Counted from the first letter of the stretch, positions 32-15,873 are shown. The stretch is DNA of 15,873 nt from Thermoproteota archaeon (GCA_037917625.1 JAVCBY010000034.1:1-15873); one strand, 5' to 3'. The notes: generated from the letters alone by a model not told the origin. Program-made: numbers and translations.

Positions 32-3000
32 CTTTCAATCCTCTTTTCATCGAGACAGTTGGAACGAATCTGGACATACGTTTAGGGGATCGATCTTTCA
101 ATCCTCTTTTCATCGAGACAGGAGCTAAAATAGGCACTAAAATCGTTGTAATCAACCTTTCAATCCTCTTTTCATCGAGACGTCGGTGGGGCTTCCGCCG
201 CCAGGAGATCGAGCCCCACAACTTTCAATCCTCTTTTCATCGAGACGTAATTCTGTCCGAAATCTGGGCTCTCCGATGCGTTATCACAGCTCTTTCAATC
301 CTCTTTTCATCGAGACTTTGTACTGGTTTGTTATCGTGAGATTGTACTCGTCTGCTTTCAATCCTCTTTTCATCGAGACTTGAATTTCCAGCAAAGGCGG
401 ACATCATCCAGCTTGATGCTTTCAATCCTCTTTTCATCGAGACGTTGAACGCTACGGATTTTGAAGACACAACATTGACAGCTACTTTCAATCCTCTTTT
501 CATCGAGACTCTCACTTCCTCGCGGAACCGTGACAGAAAGCGGGTAACTTTCAATCCTCTTTTCATCGAGACCAGATAAATTTATAAAACAGTACTCTCT
601 TTGTAATGTCTTTCAATCCTCTTTTCATCGAGACCAAAAGTTCGCAAAACTCCAGGACCTCCTGATTTTAGCTTTCAATCCTCTTTTCATCGAGACTCCC
701 AAATTGTGTAGCTTGATGTTATGTTGAACGTAGTCTTTCAATCCTCTTTTCATCGAGACGCTGTTAGATGGCTTATCTTGCCAAGATTGTCAATGAGACT
801 TTCAATCCTCTTTTCATCGAGACTTTCAATATTTTTTTTACCCTTGTGAAGGACATAAATCTTTCAATCCTCTTTTCATCGAGACATGAAAAAGAGGGTA
901 TCCCGTTGACAAATATGGTAAATCTTTCAATCCTCTTTTCATCGAGACTTTCTGTATCGATTTTCGATGTAGGTTTATAAATCTATATCTTTCAATCCTC
1001 TTTTCATCGAGACTGAGAATAGTAAGCCTAAACTCACACCTAACGTTTTGGCCTTTCAATCCTCTTTTCATCGAGACGTCCTTCCCGAAACTTCACTAAG
1101 AATTACTCTAACACCACTTTCAATCCTCTTTTCATCGAGACTTAAGCCCTTGTCAGCCTGGTTAGTTAAGTTCAATTTTTCTTTCAATCCTCTTTTCATC
1201 GAGACCCAGTCCACAACTAAATCGGCTGAATATGCACGTATTGCTTTCAATCCTCTTTTCATCGAGACGAAGAGCTTCTTCCAAAATGGGATATTCAAGC
1301 GTTACTTTCAATCCTCTTTTCATCGAGACACTGTAGAACTAGAACAATACTCATTGCAAATCCGGTCAACTTTCAATCCTCTTTTCATCGAGACGATCGA
1401 TTACTGAGCCTCCACAATCGAAAAGCTTTCCTACTTTCAATCCTCTTTTCATCGAGACTGATTATGTCTGCGACATCCAGCAGCCCCCCTCCTAGGCTTT
1501 CAATCCTCTTTTCATCGAGACATGTGAGTAGCGGAGGGACTTTAGACATAAGAGCCTACAGCTTTCAATCCTCTTTTCATCGAGACTGGGAGACATCTCC
1601 ACGCCTTTGTCTTCCCCCTCCAGGACTTTCAATCCTCTTTTCATCGAGACTGAAGAGAGTGAATATCATACGTTTACTGAGTAGAGGTCTGAGCTGCCTC
1701 CTTTCCTTTCAATCCTCTTTTCATCGAGACTGAAGAGAGTGAATATCATACTGCAGGAGGTAGCTTCCACTTTCAATCCTCTTTTCATCGAGACAGCTTT
1801 AAGTGTTAAGAGAGCTAGCTGTGTACTCGGAGGTAGCTTCCACTTTCAATCCTCTTTTCATCGAGACCAGTATCCCTCAGGGCGGGGGAGGGCCGAGCTT
1901 CAGGTGCTTTCAATCCTCTTTTCATCGAGACAGGGCTCATTATTGACGAAAATGGTGTAATAAGGCTTACTTTCAATCCTCTTTTCATCGAGACGCGATA
2001 AAACACCCGGGGGCTCTGAGAGCTTATGTAAAGCTTTCAATCCTCTTTTCATCGAGACGAGTTTGAAAAGAATTTCGAGGAACTTGAGAAGAAAACTTTC
2101 AATCCTCTTTTCATCGAGACGCACCAGGGATGAGGAGAGTGAGGGAGCTCTCTCTAGACTTTCAATCCTCTTTTCATCGAGACAAAGTAAGCTCTGGAAC
2201 GTACACGCTAGCGTATTTAGCTTTCAATCCTCTTTTCATCGAGACCTGGGCTCAGCAGGAGGATAGCCCTCCCACTATACTGCTCTTTCAATCCTCTTTT
2301 CATCGAGACACATCCAATCTGTGCTCGTGGCCCCCATTGAGTATGATACTTTCAATCCTCTTTTCATCGAGACCAGAATATTGCCCAACGCCCCGAAATA
2401 GTACTTAAAACTTTCAATCCTCTTTTCATCGAGACGAGGTGTGGTCGATAAGGGGCCACACCTACCGCGTATTTAGCTTTCAATCCTCTTTTCATCGAGA
2501 CTTCGACAATTGGTTATTACTCAATCTGTGCGGTTGCTGTCTTTCAATCCTCTTTTCATCGAGACGGGAAAGAGGCCTGAGCTGGCTGATGAAGCATATC
2601 AAGTGCTTTCAATCCTCTTTTCATCGAGACGACATCCCATATGAGAAGTTGTATGACTGGTTGATGAGAGCTTTCAATCCTCTTTTCATCGAGACCCATG
2701 TGAGGCCTCCAGCAGCAGAACTCAGGAAAAAAGCTTTCAATCCTCTTTTCATCGAGACGTAAGCACAACCCCGCCACCCACAATGGGCTACCTCTTAGCT
2801 TTCAATCCTCTTTTCATCGAGACCTATGAGAACACGTTATAGATTTAGTAGTGGCGGATCAACCTTTCAATCCTCTTTTCATCGAGACTGGCTCTTTCCG
2901 CTTCCTCTAGGGGCTAAAATAACTGCTGACTTTCAATCCTCTTTTCATCGAGACAAAATGAAACTCGTTTACTTTGCCGAGAGCGAGAGGGGCTTTCAAT

Positions 3001-3845
3001 CCTCTTTTCATCGAGACTGAGGTTTCACGACAACAATATTGTTTATCTTTTCATTCCTTTCAATCCTCTTTTCATCGAGACACAATTATGGGTGGTGTCA
3101 GTAGCGTTAATGCAATTTCGCTTTCAATCCTCTTTTCATCGAGACAAGCCGAGATAAGCTGTATCTGAGCTCTCTGTGGCAATTCTTTCAATCCTCTTTT
3201 CATCGAGACCACCCTTTCCGGTGATGAGCAGATCATAAGGGTCGTGGTCTTTCAATCCTCTTTTCATCGAGACAAGCAGTTGAGTCAACATTTTAGCAGT
3301 TGATGCATGTCCTACTTTCAATCCTCTTTTCATCGAGAAGAGCTTAGGGCTAGAGCTACCTGTGACTGTGAACACTTACTTTCAATCCTCTTTTCATCGA
3401 GAACTACGCCACGCCCCCGAAGACCAAAAAATGACAAAAAATTCTTTCAATCCTCTTTTCATCGAGAAGCAAGGATCTATGTAGGGGTACTTCTGGAGAG
3501 AGAAGCTGCTTTCAATCCTCTTTTCATCGAGAAGTATTCAAGTTCCCGCCCTCTCCCCTATTCATTCCTAACTTTCAATCCTCTTTTCATCGAGAAGACC
3601 CCCTCCACGTTCTCCGTCGTGAGCCTCTCAGCCCCTTTCAATCCTCTTTTCATCGAGAACATATGGGAATACGAAAGAGACGTGGCCTCTTCTAGATCTT
3701 TCAATCCTCTTTTCATCGAGAACTGAATATCATTGCTGAGTTGCATTATCTAGGGCTTCTTTCAATCCTCTTTTCATCGAGAACGGCGCTCTCTCCGAAA
3801 GAAGGGATGATCGTGCTATTCTTTCAATCCTCTTTTCATCGAGAA
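32..3845 (-). CRISPR. CRISPR array, 60 repeats of 25 nt (+ strand CTTTCAATCCTCTTTTCATCGAGAC/A) and 59 complete spacers; probably truncated by the left window edge
   Basis: Repeats counted by hand from 32-56 to 3821-3845. Spacers are mostly 36-41 nt (outliers 45, 48, 55). The minus-strand repeat GTCTCGATGAAAAGAGGATTGAAAG ends in the canonical ATTGAAAG handle, and the leader/promoter is at the right end. Repeats 1-51 end GAGAC; repeats 52-60 end GAGAA. Confidence 0.99.
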
Positions 3846-4030
3846 CATATACTCTAACACTCTAGATATCACGGATAGCCTCTATTTAACCTTTTCTGTG
3901 AACCCCCCTCCCGAACATATAACGCGGGAGTAAATCCTTAAAAGGCATCCCCGGTATGTTCGAGTAAAAGTTTATATATCTTCACTAGTCCCACGCAGCA
4001 AGCGTTCGCGAGGGCGTAAATGTTCGAGAG
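3846..4030 (-). promoter_or_regulatory. CRISPR leader (distal boundary approximate)
   Basis: Non-coding region adjoining the last repeat on the cas side. It contains a BRE/TATA oriented into the array and repeated CGAACAT-type motifs. Confidence 0.85.
3883..3896 (-). promoter_or_regulatory. Archaeal BRE + TATA box for pre-crRNA transcription
   Basis: Minus strand reads GAAAAGG-TTAAATA, about 37 nt upstream of the first repeat. Confidence 0.7.
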
Positions 4031-4250
4031 CTATTCTATCGTTGAAAGGCAGCTATAGGGCTTATAGTTGGATTTCTCTCCTTTCAACACGTGAATATCA
4101 AAAAATAAGGTAGATAATGGAGTTAAGAGATGTTTGGATGATAGAGAACTTCTTTCACCTCCTAAAACTGTCGGAAAATGTGCTAATTCTCATTCTATAG
4201 TTATTTTGAAGTACCATGAATAACAGGATTATTGCAATTACTTTTACACC

Positions 4251-4290
4251 AAAAAAGTTATCTTTATTTAAGCGATAGACTCATAAAAAA
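4251..4290 (-). terminator. Putative oligo-T terminator(s) of the interference operon
   Basis: Two T6 runs on the minus strand (4285-4290, 4251-4256) just after the cas3'' stop. Confidence 0.35.
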
Positions 4291-4292
4291 CT

Positions 4293-5054
4293 CTAAATAT
4301 TTAAGTATAGTTTGCAAAACTCATCTACCACGTCACCGAATTTCGTCCCCCCACCTCTCCTACTTGCCGATATGTAATCAACGCTAACGAGTGATACTAA
4401 AGTTAGATATGACAGTCTCTTCAGGACTACATCTTTTTCTTTTCCTGAGATATAGATACTAAAAAAATCTTTACAGATCTCGTGGAATGTCCGCCCCATA
4501 TCATTTATCTTAATTGAGCCCCTCTCAATACTACCTTTAAGCTCACTTATAACCGAGTCAAGTAATTTTCTCTCCTCCTTAGAGAGAGCATCTTTTCTTA
4601 AGAAAGACAGCTCGTCTCTGAGGTCCTCCAGGAGGCTAGGATTCAGCTTGACTTGTTTTATCCTCTCTAACCTCTTCGAGATATCCATCGGATGGTGGTG
4701 GAATGCTACGGCGAATAACGCTGGTTTCAATACACTAAATCCCTCAAGGTCATTAAGTTTCCTCTTCACAATTAATTTCCTGAACTTAGAGAGTAAATAT
4801 GTTGAGAAGATTTCGTGTCCTGCAAAGCTTATCGAATCTCTCTGATATAAGAATTTACTTTGATAAAAAGCTTTACCTAAATCGTGAAAGACTACGGACA
4901 ATCTGACCTCATCGATGAAATCTTTATCGAGAGAGAGGCCCACTCTCCCTATCCTAGAACTCTCTAATTTCTCCAAGAGGTGGAGGCAGCTGTTTATATG
5001 CTCCGATAGATACTCTGTTACGGGAGGCTTATGATAACTGAGGATCCTTCCCAT
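4293..5054 (-). CDS. cas3'': CRISPR-associated HD nuclease Cas3''
   Basis: Motifs LSEH, FHDLGKA, GHEIFS, FHHH, VDYISA of the Cas3 HD domain; overlaps the end of cas3'. Confidence 0.95.
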   Translation of the reverse strand: MGRILSYHKPPVTEYLSEHINSCLHLLEKLESSRIGRVGLSLDKDFIDEVRLSVVFHDLGKAFYQSKFLYQRDSISFAGHEIFSTYLLSKFRKLIVKRKLNDLEGFSVLKPALFAVAFHHHPMDISKRLERIKQVKLNPSLLEDLRDELSFLRKDALSKEERKLLDSVISELKGSIERGSIKINDMGRTFHEICKDFFSIYISGKEKDVVLKRLSYLTLVSLVSVDYISASRRGGGTKFGDVVDEFCKLYLNI

Positions 5055-6795
5055 GTCCCATCACCATTCCCAATTCCTCGTCATAATCCCCCTCCACCAA
5101 GAACGCAACGAACTTAGATGAGAGGACACGCCTTAATACGTTTCTTGCATCTACCCCGTTTTCTGGCTGATTGTCGAACTTAGATGAGAGGACACGCCTT
5201 AATACACTCTTCTTTCTCTCGTTCCAGAGCTTCTCAGCGGACTCCTTTATTACCTTCCCCTCCTCTTCAATGAGCATCTCCCCGGGCTTTATCCTATATA
5301 CAACGGATAAGCTCATGGGGACTAGAAGATCCCTCAATTCACTTATGGGCATATCTTCTCTCCATAAGGAGCTGGGAACTACCGGGACTAGCGTGCTATC
5401 TCTCACGAAACTCCCCTCCAATTCTTCTATGAATATCTTAATCACTCGATTAGAGCTCTCTAAGATGCTCTCTAGGGAAATTAATTCCCGCACATCTCCG
5501 GGGCTTAAGTTGAAGGAGCTCTCATCATAAACACTATCTAGAAGGGTTTGGTAACTTTCCGGATCGTGAAATCTCACCTCATTCCCCTCGAGGAAGTCAA
5601 GAGTTCTCTCAAGGAGATCCATATCATATATGCCCTTGTACTTCCCGCCCTCTCCCTCCTCATGCCAGAGGAAGATCATCCCCTCCCCTTCCCCTCTGTA
5701 CCTCAGGAACCTCCCCAGCCTCTGGATCAGAGATGAGGCTGGAGCTAGATCGGATATGAAGAGGTCCGAGGATATATCGATGCCTGCTTCTATAACTTGC
5801 GTCGAGACTATCAGATACTCCTCCTTACTCTTCAACTCCTCAATCCTTCTCATCTTCTCCTCCCTATCCTTCCCTGAGAACCTAGAGTGGAGGAGGAGCA
5901 TCCTATCTTTTCGCAATTCCAATCTATCCCTCGCAAGCCTATAGAACTCGATAGCTTCATTAACTGTGTTGAAGACGACGATAGCTCTTCTAAATCCTTC
6001 TCTCATGCCCCTCTTTATCCAATCCGAGATCCTCTCGAACTTATCGCCCCCGAGCTTCTCCAAATTTGCGTCATACCTCTTCTTCCCTCTCTCCTCAAGG
6101 AACATGTTATCGGGATCCTCTGAGAATCTAGTAATCTGGAGATCGATGTCCTTACATTCCCTCCTCAGGAGGCTCTCCAGAGCCTTAGGGATTGTCGCCG
6201 ACATGAAGGTAGCTCTCCCCCCATGAGAGGCCACTATCCAGATGAGGGAGATCAGGAAGTTCAGAGACTTCGTCGTATCTGATAGGAGATGGACTTCATC
6301 GAGCACTAAATCTGAGAGAAGGACCATAGCTCTGGAGAAGAGATAATGCCCCATGCTCCCAGTTAGAGTCCCATCATAGTACTTGAGGACCATCTCTAAG
6401 TCCTCAGGAGCTATGCCGAAGAGAGTTAGGGAGAGAGTATCGACTGTAGTGAGAGTAATGGGTCTTATCAAATATCTCGATTCTGGATAATGCATATATC
6501 TAGCTCCGACGAGCCTTTCATCGAAATTAAGTTTACGTAACATCCCTCTGAACTTAAATAGCTGATCCTCGAGGAGGGTCCTCAAGGGGTATGAGATCAC
6601 ACACTTTAATCCCTCCTCCAAAGACCTGAGCGCGATCGCTTGAGAGATCGCAGATTTCCCATAGCCCGTAGGCGCCTCTATGACTGAGATTCTGCTATCT
6701 TCAGCTTTCTTTATAGCGAAGTTGAGGAAGGGCCTATCCTCCCTCTCCGGTAATGTTGAGAGAACGCATTCCAAGTAGTGAGATAAGCTAGCCAA
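5029..6795 (-). CDS. cas3': CRISPR-associated SF2 helicase Cas3'
   Basis: APTGYGKS (Walker A), DEVH, MSAT, LHSRF, STQVIEAGIDIS, QRLGR; TTG start preceded by a GGAGGTGA RBS. Confidence 0.96.
   Translation of the reverse strand: MASLSHYLECVLSTLPEREDRPFLNFAIKKAEDSRISVIEAPTGYGKSAISQAIALRSLEEGLKCVISYPLRTLLEDQLFKFRGMLRKLNFDERLVGARYMHYPESRYLIRPITLTTVDTLSLTLFGIAPEDLEMVLKYYDGTLTGSMGHYLFSRAMVLLSDLVLDEVHLLSDTTKSLNFLISLIWIVASHGGRATFMSATIPKALESLLRRECKDIDLQITRFSEDPDNMFLEERGKKRYDANLEKLGGDKFERISDWIKRGMREGFRRAIVVFNTVNEAIEFYRLARDRLELRKDRMLLLHSRFSGKDREEKMRRIEELKSKEEYLIVSTQVIEAGIDISSDLFISDLAPASSLIQRLGRFLRYRGEGEGMIFLWHEEGEGGKYKGIYDMDLLERTLDFLEGNEVRFHDPESYQTLLDSVYDESSFNLSPGDVRELISLESILESSNRVIKIFIEELEGSFVRDSTLVPVVPSSLWREDMPISELRDLLVPMSLSVVYRIKPGEMLIEEEGKVIKESAEKLWNERKKSVLRRVLSSKFDNQPENGVDARNVLRRVLSSKFVAFLVEGDYDEELGMVMGHGKDPQLS
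5109..5205. repeat. Perfect 31-bp direct repeat (5109-5139, 5175-5205) flanking a 35-bp unique segment within cas3'
   Basis: CGAACTTAGATGAGAGGACACGCCTTAATAC occurs twice; the protein reads VLRRVLSSKF-DNQPENGVDARN-VLRRVLSSKF. Confidence 0.97.
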
Positions 6796-7303
6796 GGTGA
6801 CTCACCTCCTGCGAGCCCCTCTGAGGAGATATAGTCCTCTGCTCGCTAAAATGGAAAGCCTTCCATGGTACGCTGGAGACGTGCCTTAAATCTTTAATGC
6901 ATTCAATCATATGAAATTGCAGCCACGATCTCGAGCTTCCAGGGACTACCCTCAATGACCTCTCTAAGCCGTGTATTTTCTGGATATCTTCTCCAGATTT
7001 CCGGATTAAATATTTTAGAAATTTCCCGTGACACTGCTGGACGTGAAAACATGAATCACTAGAAAACGATTCGGAAGTTCGCAAAAAGGTGCCGCTTCCC
7101 ATCCCACAAAAAGCATCGCAATGCTCGCATCTCCCAGTCTCCTTATAGACGCATCCATGGAAGGGAGATTTAAGGCAGTAATTCTCACAAAATTCTCCCT
7201 TGCATATCCCCCCACTTTTTACTTTCGCTGAAGTGATCCAGATTTTATAGGCAATAGACTCATTGAAGTCCTTTATAGCCACTTCAATCCACTCAGAAGG
7301 CAT
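6788..7303 (-). CDS. Hypothetical cysteine-rich (putative metal-binding) protein, 171 aa, inside the Cascade operon
   Basis: The ORF exactly fills the cas8a-cas3' gap, overlapping the cas8a stop (11 nt) and the cas3' start (8 nt). It has 10 Cys; I recognise no family. Confidence 0.7.
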   Translation of the reverse strand: MPSEWIEVAIKDFNESIAYKIWITSAKVKSGGICKGEFCENYCLKSPFHGCVYKETGRCEHCDAFCGMGSGTFLRTSESFSSDSCFHVQQCHGKFLKYLIRKSGEDIQKIHGLERSLRVVPGSSRSWLQFHMIECIKDLRHVSSVPWKAFHFSEQRTISPQRGSQEVSHLG

Positions 7304-9311: not shown

Positions 9312-10343
9312 TCACTCCAGCCTCCTCTTCGCCTCATTCATTGCCTCAATCACGACTTCCTCGAATCCCGGCCCTCCCACGTACTTGAAGAGCTTCGTAT
9401 TGTAACTAACTTTCTTCGCCTTCTCCTCTGCTCTCTCCACGTAATTCTTAGAGAACGGGCTCGGAACAGCCCATATATCGTCGCTCACTGCTATAACTAA
9501 GGATTCCCACTCGATCACAGGGAGAAACCTCGTCCTCTTCGCTCCAAACATCATCTCTATCATGAATTTAGAGAGGGCATCTAAAGCTGTCCCTATCCTC
9601 TTCTTCCTCTCCTCCTCACTTACAACGACTTTACCAGCATTCTTCATGGAGAAAGTCGCTTTCCCTATGTATTTAGTATCTAGATCGAAACTGAACGTAT
9701 AAGCTGCGGAGGAGAGCTCTATGTAGTAGATCATCTGACCACCAGCTCTCGCTCCTTCCTCGACGAAGGGAGTGCCTAACGCATATCTCGTGTGGAGTTG
9801 AGGCTCTATCACAGTGCTCTCCAGCGACTCCCTAGTTGGTATCATATAACCTACGAAGAAATTAGAGGTCCTCTTAACGTTCCTCCCCTCCTCAGCTGAA
9901 GCATCCTTAACTTTCTTCCCTTCTTCAGCTGAAGCATCCTTAGCGCCTCTCCCTCTCTTGGCTGGAGCATAGAGGAAGCCCCCCACATCCTCTACGACGC
10001 ACCCCTTTATGACAGCATTTTCAAACTCGCTCACGTCCTTGGGCGGATTGTCTCCGAAGGACTCCTTGAAGACAGCATCATTCGTGCTCTTCAAGAAGTA
10101 TCCCTTGCTGCATAACTTACACACAGGCAAGTTCTTCCTTGCAGCTTCCTCAGCTAATACTTGCTGATATCCATGAGCTATGGATTCCCCACTCACTGAG
10201 GGGACGAAGTAAGTTGAGTATGTCCCCGGCATTATCACGGGGACTCTCCTATGCTTCACATAATTTCCAACGCTTTCCGTCATATTCAAGGCCTCAACAT
10301 TGATCAGGACCCTTCCCCTAACCGAGACGAATGGATCCACCAT
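9312..10343 (-). CDS. cas7: Type I-A Cas7/Csa2 backbone subunit
   Basis: EALNMTESVGNYVKHR, VSGESIAHGYQ, EDVGGFL, VKRTS and FGAKRTRFLP motifs typical of Csa2. Confidence 0.96.
   Translation of the reverse strand: MVDPFVSVRGRVLINVEALNMTESVGNYVKHRRVPVIMPGTYSTYFVPSVSGESIAHGYQQVLAEEAARKNLPVCKLCSKGYFLKSTNDAVFKESFGDNPPKDVSEFENAVIKGCVVEDVGGFLYAPAKRGRGAKDASAEEGKKVKDASAEEGRNVKRTSNFFVGYMIPTRESLESTVIEPQLHTRYALGTPFVEEGARAGGQMIYYIELSSAAYTFSFDLDTKYIGKATFSMKNAGKVVVSEEERKKRIGTALDALSKFMIEMMFGAKRTRFLPVIEWESLVIAVSDDIWAVPSPFSKNYVERAEEKAKKVSYNTKLFKYVGGPGFEEVVIEAMNEAKRRLE
9880..9942. repeat. 33-bp-period tandem duplication in cas7 (KDASAEEG x2)
   Basis: 9880-9909 vs 9913-9942 are 27/30 identical; reading frame preserved. 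Confidence 0.9.
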
Positions 10344-11422: not shown

Positions 11423-11945
11423 TCATTCAAAGCATATCCCCTTAAAATCGCAGTTCTCGCAACTCCTCGATCTATAAGCTCTGGGGACCTCCCCCTCCAT
11501 TATCCTCCTGCACTTCTCTATAGCTCTGATCAGGAACCTCCTCTCACCATCCCCCACTCTCACCTCTATGAACCTCATCCCCTTGGTTAGGAGCAAAATG
11601 CCCGATTTAACTGGCCTCCCAATGGAGTCCTCCAGGAGCATAGCGTAAAGGGAGATGCTGTACTTCCACCATGGCCTCAGCCTCCCGCTGAACTTGACCT
11701 CCAAGGGCATTATCTCCCTTTCCCTCCTCACCACGAAATCTACCTTCCCTACTACTCCCAATCTATCGCTCCTCAGCTCAACTTCCTTTCCCAAGATCTC
11801 GAACTTCTTCCTTATCTCATCCTCAGCTTCCTCCTGAGCTCTCTTCCCCAGATGAGCCCAGAAGCCCTCCTGCCTATCTATCCCGAGGTGGTTCTTGTAG
11901 TAAAAGAGGAGAGGGCAGAAGAGGTACTCCTCTATCTCCCTGACG

Positions 11946-11965
<20 letters not shown>
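11423..11965 (-). CDS. cas4: CRISPR-associated Cas4
   Basis: EYLFCP, GKVD, EVK and a C-terminal CxxCxxxxxC Fe-S motif. Confidence 0.92.
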
Positions 11966-14168
<2,203 letters not shown>

Positions 14169-15361: not shown

Positions 15362-15799
15362 TCACCTCCAAAATCCCCTCTCCTCTAGAACAGGGATAAG
15401 CACCTCCGAGATCATTCCCACGTAGCTCTTCACCTTCTCCAGCACTTCCCTAGCGTAGCCTTCAGAGACAACTTCGGAAGCGGGTATCTCCTCATAACCG
15501 TACATCGCCGGTCCCCTTATAGCGGCTAACTCGGAGATCAACGATGATAATTCCTCAACGCAACTTCTTATAGTTTCAGGGAGCTTGTCAGAAATTGAGA
15601 GTAAGACAGGACTTACGTCATGCGTCTTAGGGTATTCTACTGCTAGGGCCCTTAAGAGAGACTTGGCTGCCATTTCAAGAGATTCCTGAGATCTCCTCAC
15701 GCATAGAGGATAATCCTCACGTCTAAATGCAGCTTCAGCCTCTTCTAAGCAAGAGAGAGAACGCTTAAGGTAATCAGCAGCCATTTGTAAGTTTATCAG
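15362..15799 (-). CDS. HEPN-domain protein of an MNT-HEPN pair (start CTG 15799 or ATG 15784)
   Basis: A..AF...DY....RSQESLEMAAKSLL, PKTHDV and R...MYG motifs. Confidence 0.9.
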   Translation of the reverse strand: MINLQMAADYLKRSLSCLEEAEAAFRREDYPLCVRRSQESLEMAAKSLLRALAVEYPKTHDVSPVLLSISDKLPETIRSCVEELSSLISELAAIRGPAMYGYEEIPASEVVSEGYAREVLEKVKSYVGMISEVLIPVLEERGFWR

Positions 15800-15873
15800 A
15801 TCTCCACCACCTCTCCTAGCTTGACATCTTGCTTCAGAATCCAGTACCACCCATCCCCCACTCTAACCTTCTT
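15796..15873 (-). CDS. C-terminal fragment of a minimal nucleotidyltransferase (MNT), partial at the window edge
   Basis: Not in the ORF track. Reads KKVRVGDGWYWILKQDVKLGEVVEI*, resembling the WxWxLK..GEV C-terminus of archaeal MNTs; its stop overlaps the HEPN start. Confidence 0.75.
   Translation of the reverse strand, partial: KKVRVGDGWYWILKQDVKLGEVVEI

Follow-up and report, generated by a model that had tools for sequence, protein, structure and literature searches.

A 66-bp in-frame insertion in the cas3' helicase gene of an archaeal type I-A CRISPR-Cas locus, a natural candidate for off-target spacer integration

The stretch of DNA analysed here (15,873 nucleotides, hereafter the window) comes from a Thermoproteota archaeon (GCA_037917625.1, JAVCBY010000034.1:1-15873) and is one entire contig (C40) of a 1.22-Mb metagenome-assembled genome (MAG) that consists of 116 contigs and is 83.93% complete. 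It carries a type I-A CRISPR-Cas locus, whose cas3' gene contains 66 additional bp that have the build of a spacer-sized insertion between two copies of its target. The open reading frame (ORF) hosting these 66 bp is a type I-A Cas3' helicase, both by its match to a core model and by its operon context. It has 560 homologues at E ≤ 0.001; the closest named relative is from Candidatus Methanodesulfokora washburnensis (70%), and other named matches include Candidatus Korarchaeum sp. and MAGs of Bathyarchaeia. Judged by gene similarity alone, the host is probably a hot-spring archaeon akin to korarchaeotes. The neighbours of cas3' match TIGR01874, TIGR02583 and TIGR01878 (the last below its cut-off), and the locus includes cas5a, cas7/csa2, csa5 (below cut-off) and csa3, together with a 397-aa ORF without family assignment that occupies the position expected for cas8a. 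The adaptation module of the MAG that carries the insertion is intact, with cas1, cas2, cas4 and csa1 in addition to a 60-repeat array. Located near an active-looking type I-A adaptation locus, the insertion is separated from the first repeat of this array by about 1.26 kb.

The additional DNA is made of two direct copies of 31 bp, 100% identical to each other, and of a 35-nt middle that separates them, with a start-to-start spacing of 66 (Table 1). This is the anatomy that had been described in the original prediction, and these two copies form the single family of direct repeats found between 4800 and 5500. In 15.9 kb, an exact repeat of 31 nt is far above chance expectation. The 1.22-Mb MAG offers no further site for the 31-mer or for the 35-mer, the best other matches reaching only 14 and 12 nt, respectively. 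No inverted repeat was found around the insertion (0 found), and an origin from an inverted repeat or a hairpin is rejected on this ground. On the minus strand, the cas3' ORF reads ...KKS-VLRRVLSSKF-DNQPENGVDARN-VLRRVLSSKF-VAFLVEG..., so that the 66 bp add 22 codons in frame, including the second VLRRVLSSKF that had been predicted. As 66 bp correspond to 22 codons and the insert lacks any stop codon, Cas3' gains an extra segment in its C-terminal domain.

Table 1. Coordinates of the insertion, of its host gene and of the CRISPR-Cas features discussed in the text.
Feature	Position in the window	Strand	Remarks
Copy 1 of the 31-bp target	5109..5139	.	Codes for the second (C-proximal) VLRRVLSSKF on the minus strand
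Unique 35-bp insert	5140..5174	.	Minus-strand translation DNQPENGVDARN
Copy 2 of the 31-bp target	5175..5205	.	Codes for the first (N-proximal) VLRRVLSSKF
cas3' helicase gene hosting the insertion	5029..6795	-	588 aa; TIGR01587, 241.9 bits (cut-off 102.45)
cas3'' HD nuclease gene	4293..5054	-	Overlaps the end of cas3'; TIGR01596, 36.1 bits, below the cut-off (43.45)
CRISPR leader, from first repeat to cas3''	3846..4292	-	Orientation deduced from the ATTGAAAG ending of the repeat and from the variant that repeats show at the leader end
CRISPR array	32..3845	-	60 repeats of 25 nt, 59 spacers
Aberrant array unit	1626..1751	.	46-bp duplication (1626-1671 = 1706-1751) around a 34-nt insert (1672-1705)
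Aberrant array unit	1756..1867	.	39-bp duplication (1756-1794 = 1829-1867) around a 34-nt insert (1795-1828)
Adaptation module	11423..14168	-	All four genes above cut-offs
cas4	11423-11965	-	Above cut-off
cas2	11946-12278	-	Above cut-off
csa1	12217-13149	-	Above cut-off
cas1	13146-14168	-	Above cut-off; sole cas1 in the MAG

The middle segment does not derive from its surroundings. It shares 20–29% identity with either flank, and when it is treated as the product of a tandem duplication, the best split of the junction explains 31% of it, which is the chance level. Tandem duplication by slippage is therefore rejected, in agreement with the initial argument that simple slippage would not supply the middle. 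No local template was found within 3.2 kb, where only one 8-mer is in common. A foreign source for the segment was sought in several collections: exact matches to the 35-mer number 0 in IMG/VR and 0 in the representative genomes of GTDB, there are 0 matches in 35 genomes of the family at up to 3 mismatches, and GenBank phages give chance matches only (E=3). The spacers of the array itself have no match in GenBank phages either, indicating that the local virome and mobilome are unsampled in these collections.

Comparison with relatives reveals both filled and empty forms of the site. Cas3' was aligned with 22 homologues out of its top 27 hit rows (P0002-P0028), near-duplicates or short sequences being left out (P0015, P0017, P0019, P0026 and P0027). 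As the original prediction had anticipated, a single VLxxxLSSKF-type segment, diverged in several proteins, is found in 21 of the 22, with nothing like the 12 extra residues. The exception is P0002 (587 aa, 96% identical), the sole filled homologue among those aligned, which has the same 22 extra residues. In the closed genome of an organism of the same genus (G012, 81% DNA identity in this region), there is one copy of the target and exactly 66 bp fewer. A scan of metagenomes retrieved 17 related loci, 14 of which cover the whole gene with match lengths of 1674–1689 nt, and a peptide pattern that crosses the junction of the insert retrieved no further filled allele. The region itself is contained in two metagenome runs from hot springs, X1 and X2, which belong to two studies. 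All three contigs that cross the site, one from X1 (1300 nt, about 98% identical) and two from X2 (700 and 156 nt), skip exactly 66 bp; these empty-site contigs are 97–98% identical to the window. None of the five contigs from X1 and X2 covers the 35-mer, an absence that proves nothing by itself. The insertion is real and derived. It is apparently young and polymorphic among strains that are 97–98% identical.

The possibility that the repeat-filler-repeat structure was generated by the assembler of the MAG, as a loop around a common word, was considered because the window is an entire MAG contig and because the 31-bp repeat is close to word sizes commonly used by assemblers. P0002 makes such an artefact hardly credible. 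It originates from a separate contig (2537 nt) of a metagenome in ENA, while the window protein comes from NCBI, and the two proteins differ by 20 internal substitutions, a difference in the reading of the start codon (L/M) and a one-codon deletion. One of these substitutions, R534H, lies within the N-proximal copy, so that the two copies of P0002 are not identical. As a separate assembly from a different strain carries the same insertion, the filled form is not the artefact of one assembly.

The distribution of substitutions among these alleles is complex. The empty contig from X1 has residues 384, 433, 436, 505 and 506 in common with P0002, and the one from X2 has 384, 433, 436, 447, 449-451, 453 and 454 as well as the one-codon deletion at 458 in common with it. 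The region 5422-5456 concentrates 7 substitutions and the one-codon deletion in 35 nt (residues 447-458); this cluster is found in P0002 and X2 and not in X1, and suggests that co-occurring strains have recombined in a mosaic fashion. The presence of filled alleles on two backgrounds, with empty alleles on backgrounds close to that of P0002, points to recombination among strains or to secondary loss; if the two 31-bp copies recombined, an exact empty form would be regenerated. The claim that the insertion is recent thus holds in part: it appears young, as its polymorphism at 97–98% identity indicates, and it is nevertheless already present on two haplotype backgrounds that are 20 internal residues apart.

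Such mosaicism leaves room for another origin, in which recombination would have brought in the 66 bp from a divergent, unsampled cas3' allele where the extra segment was already present. Besides the occurrence of the filled form on two backgrounds, this scenario would be in keeping with the fact that P0002 combines substitutions found separately in X1 and X2. It is nonetheless rather improbable, as the 12 residues are unlike anything in 21 of the 22 aligned homologues, are also lacking, judging from match lengths, in the 16 metagenome loci that cover the C-terminus, and are flanked by copies whose 100% identity over 31 bp implies a duplication in place.

The protein would accommodate the additional segment as a loop. 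In the AlphaFold model of Cas3' (input alignment of 23 rows, mean predicted local distance difference test score, pLDDT, of 77.7), the C-proximal copy is modelled as a helix (550-557) followed by a strand (562-567), as in the homologues, where the motif VLxxVLSSKF-VAF is conserved. Values of pLDDT are below 50 for residues 527-548, which correspond to the N-proximal copy together with the majority of the 12 new residues, only two rows of the alignment informing this region. According to this model, the C-proximal copy would keep the original helix and the N-proximal copy would form a loop with the 12 new residues. The private substitutions of P0002 cluster at positions 526, 527, 529 and 534, a pattern that fits relaxed constraint on a loop that is presumably tolerated. 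A search of solved structures gave 8wtk_A as the best chain; its alignment ends at profile position 464, short of the insertion.

The CRISPR array located beside the insertion provides an internal record of how the integrase of this locus measures its products. The variant letter at the end of the repeats fits recent growth of this array: the nine leader-proximal repeats (3294-3845) end in ...GAGAA on the plus strand and the 51 older ones in ...GAGAC, and all later units seem to have inherited a mutation that arose in the first repeat. Fifty-six of the 59 spacers are 36–41 nt long and the other three are 45, 48 and 55 nt long. Four of the 59 units have a period of 66, so that the period of the cas3' structure falls inside the range of the array. 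Two of the unusually long spacers lie in a stretch (1626-1867) where three consecutive spacers have common ends. There, a 46-bp duplication, which takes in the repeat and 21 nt of the spacer next to it, and a 39-bp duplication, which corresponds to 14 nt of spacer plus the repeat, account for the 'spacers' of 55 and 48 nt. In both over-long duplications, one edge lies exactly at the border of the repeat and the other is displaced; this geometry is what would be given by one correct strand transfer and one mis-measured one. Duplication lengths were measured as exact identity for 197 pairs of adjacent repeats in nine arrays of this repeat family. They amount to 25 bp in 98 pairs, 26 bp in 54, 27 bp in 27, 28 bp in 7, 29 bp in 2, 30 bp in 2, 31 bp in 2, 39 bp in 1, 46 bp in 1 and 23–24 bp in 3. 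The 39- and 46-bp duplications of the adjacent array therefore indicate that the integrase makes ruler errors of this kind. As these over-long duplications enclose 34-nt inserts, the 31 bp and 35 nt of cas3' fit the error pattern of the integrase. The fit might be closer still: from the layout of the contigs, position 5206 appears to be a G in two of the three empty contigs (it is not among the listed differences), and if it was once a G in the window, the event becomes a 32-bp duplication with a 34-nt insert. Alternatively, the same appearance would result if a 25-bp duplication and a 41-nt spacer were accompanied by 6 nt of fortuitous identity; this is seen in 2 of the 197 true units.

These data suggest that an off-target, full-site integration by Cas1-Cas2, with a mis-measured duplication of 31 bp, is the best explanation of the structure, although we consider it as liable to be wrong as right. 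The proposed process can be viewed as follows: the Cas1-Cas2 of the locus, with Cas4 and Csa1, would integrate a spacer-sized DNA at a non-CRISPR site in cas3'; the two strand-transfer attacks would be separated by 31 bp rather than by 25 bp; gap filling would then duplicate 31 bp on both sides of the 35-nt insert; and the filled allele, presumably tolerated, would have spread or persisted among recombining strains. The responsible enzyme, we infer, is the integrase. No second adaptation system with a repeat of about 31 nt was found in the 84%-complete MAG, which encodes one cas1 and contains only arrays with 25-nt repeats.

Several observations weigh against this explanation. As the original prediction itself cautioned, the duplication of cas3' (31 bp) is longer than the repeat (25 bp), and the 35-nt insert is shorter than all 59 spacers of the array (36–55 nt), while being close to the 34 nt of the aberrant units. 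No protospacer of the 35-mer was found in IMG/VR, in GTDB representatives, in the 35 family genomes or in GenBank phages. The target had been proposed to resemble the repeat core and to begin with a leader motif, CGAAC. The corresponding words are present, but the likeness does not exceed the chance level: the best ungapped comparison of the 25-nt repeat with the inferred empty site gives 13/25, and 43% (ungapped) or 68% (gapped) of 3000 random 71-nt windows of the genome match the repeat equally well or better. The leader does contain three CGAAC words, all of them over 100 nt away from its junction with the repeat, which makes them uninformative, and nothing like a leader junction is found at the insertion site. 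The empty contigs belong to Logan, whose contigs are built with 31-letter words, that is, with words as long as the duplicated copies; they could thus conceivably be collapsed loops, even though, in a population with filled alleles only, contigs would be expected to end at the repeat and not to run through it. Finally, another Cas3' protein, P0005 (79% identical in the alignment, 74% by BLASTP), has a 26-residue insertion of repeat-filler-repeat type elsewhere, at residues about 311-350, after the SRFSGKD motif. It consists of REAKRKRIEELK, followed by 12 new residues and then by REAKRKRRRIEELK, and is found in no other aligned homologue. Its copies of 12–14 residues (36–42 nt) appear too long for a 25-nt ruler, which hints at a general mutational process.

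The main rival to integration by Cas1-Cas2 would be such a process, i.e. a capture associated with repair or replication in which a staggered break or a template switch took up about 35 nt from an unsampled donor and fill-in duplicated 31 bp, Cas1-Cas2 playing no part. The insertion of P0005 has a similar shape and lies in the same gene family, the target in the window is not repeat-like, the sizes of the duplication and of the insert depart from the canonical 25 bp and 36–41 nt, and a donor such as a virus, a plasmid or an unassembled part of a MAG that is 83.93% complete could be missing from the data. We nevertheless consider repair-associated capture unlikely, even if it deserves serious attention. 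A template is lacking locally as well as in every collection searched, and the position beside the leader becomes a coincidence if repair was responsible. Moreover, no repair pathway is known to give duplications of about 30 bp, while the neighbouring array shows the integrase doing so. As far as candidates were compared, no second recent event of comparable build is contained in the MAG. Exact repeats of at least 18 nt and up to 120 nt apart were searched for throughout it, a scan for further duplications of this kind having been advised from the start. Besides numerous tandem coding repeats, this search returned four short structures of repeat-filler-repeat type whose middles are unrelated. 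For three of the latter (C1:6970, C51:1526 and C72:3579), both copies and the middle are present in the relatives G016/G012 at 81–88% identity; this conservation indicates that they are old peptide repeats and not recent insertions. The fourth (C26:27864) has a 92-nt middle, and the comparison with relatives covered the other three. Related loci (35 loci, 149 kb, many of them overlapping) did not contain any second such structure outside arrays. Recent events of this type are thus represented in the MAG by the cas3' insertion alone, which is located beside the CRISPR leader.

Duplication of a target around foreign DNA is also a general signature of transposition, and the structure could in principle be the footprint of another mobile element (a transposon, a casposon or the att site of an integrase) that inserted and then excised. 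This origin is very unlikely: transposases and casposases are not known to make duplications of more than 15 bp, the search for inverted repeats (0 found) leaves the structure without terminal ones, and no related copy is present in the genome.

Taken as a whole, the idea of an ectopic acquisition put forward in the original prediction survives as far as the true in-frame insertion, the empty sites of relatives and the ruler errors of the array are concerned, and fails for the protospacer and for the likeness of the target to the repeat or the leader. The term 'mini-array' describes the shape only, as nothing suggests that the two copies act as CRISPR repeats. That a CRISPR integrase wrote, in nature, a spacer-sized orphan DNA into the helicase gene of its own system, leaving a heritable segment of 22 residues whose filled and empty alleles segregate among recombining archaea of hot springs, is a tentative conclusion, in which our confidence falls a little short of even.

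Ectopic integration by Cas1-Cas2 has indeed been reported before. In Escherichia coli, off-target integration by the type I-E system was described by Nivala, Shipman and Church (2018), according to excerpts of 10.1101/148544, PMC6698737, PMC9456107 and PMC7054753. The excerpt of 10.1101/148544 presents natural cases as few and circumstantial, in two other species, that of the review PMC7054753 mentions rarer off-target events in E. coli, and that of PMC6698737 reports off-target sites used in vitro by Cas1-Cas2 from Pyrococcus. As far as these excerpts describe the E. coli events, the cas3' structure shares with them a spacer-sized insert, a duplicated non-CRISPR target and a genome with an active adaptation module. 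It differs from them, on the same basis, by its occurrence in a natural population and in a type I-A system instead of upon over-expression, by the lack of likeness to repeat or leader, by a duplication that exceeds the repeat length by 6 bp, and by its in-frame position in the helicase gene of the system itself, with filled and empty alleles. In the type I-B system of Haloarcula hispanica, Wang et al. (2016; PMC4872114) report duplications of 29–33 bp for a 30-bp repeat when the spacing of motifs is changed. There as here, a mis-measured second cut would shift the size of the duplication away from the repeat length, and the 39- and 46-bp units of the array are of the same kind; however, the deviations in that work are of 1–3 bp and concern engineered repeats, whereas those considered here are natural and amount to +6 bp in cas3' and to +14 and +21 bp in the array. 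Ectopic acquisition of spacers inside arrays is known from the type II-A system of Streptococcus thermophilus (PMC7999890; review PMC8047081). It likewise takes place away from the leader-proximal repeat, but the events described there use a true repeat of an array, whereas the site in cas3' belongs to a coding sequence that lies outside the array. A limited full-text search, which cannot show that none exists, retrieved no publication in which a cas gene carries a natural off-target integration that is in frame.

Other features of the locus and of the MAG can be mentioned. The cas7/csa2 gene contains a 33-bp tandem repeat (9873-9971) in about 3 copies, 67–100% identical to the reference copy, which encodes KDASAEEGKKV / KDASAEEGRNV in a loop that splits the match to the DevR family into two stretches. 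This is an ordinary in-frame expansion of slippage type. The cas3' insertion resembles this threefold repeat of 33 bp as an in-frame addition to a cas gene with a repeated peptide, but its middle is unrelated to the flanks, whereas in a tandem duplication the middle copies them. Two ORFs with a HEPN domain (Pfam PF05168; 29.6 and 65.9 bits) are located at 6788-7303 and 15362-15850, one being wedged between the 397-aa ORF and cas3' in the interference operon and the other lying beyond a gene for an RNA 2'-phosphotransferase. On another contig (L036 283-1164, i.e. G000:C49:1782-2663), a lone CRISPR repeat precedes a cassette of two genes, an ORF of 75 aa and one of 130 aa that weakly matches the PIN domain (20.8 bits, below the cut-off of 23.6). 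Beyond the cassette, two further repeats, variant in form, flank a 51-nt spacer. CRISPR repeats thus appear to surround a pair of toxin-antitoxin type.

Off-target integration of spacers is known mainly from over-expression experiments, and the cas3' locus is a natural candidate for it. The locus offers clear empty and filled alleles and an in-frame, apparently tolerated change of the interference helicase, and the adjacent array is an internal record of a type I-A integrase mis-measuring its duplications. Both the way in which a type I-A integrase chooses its targets and measures them and the part of CRISPR adaptation in the evolution of host genes are thereby made testable. If the mechanism is based on repair, the finding reduces to an ordinary polymorphic indel in a cas gene. 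If Cas1-Cas2 is indeed responsible, it would be a natural source of insertions in coding sequences, beyond its role in immune memory.

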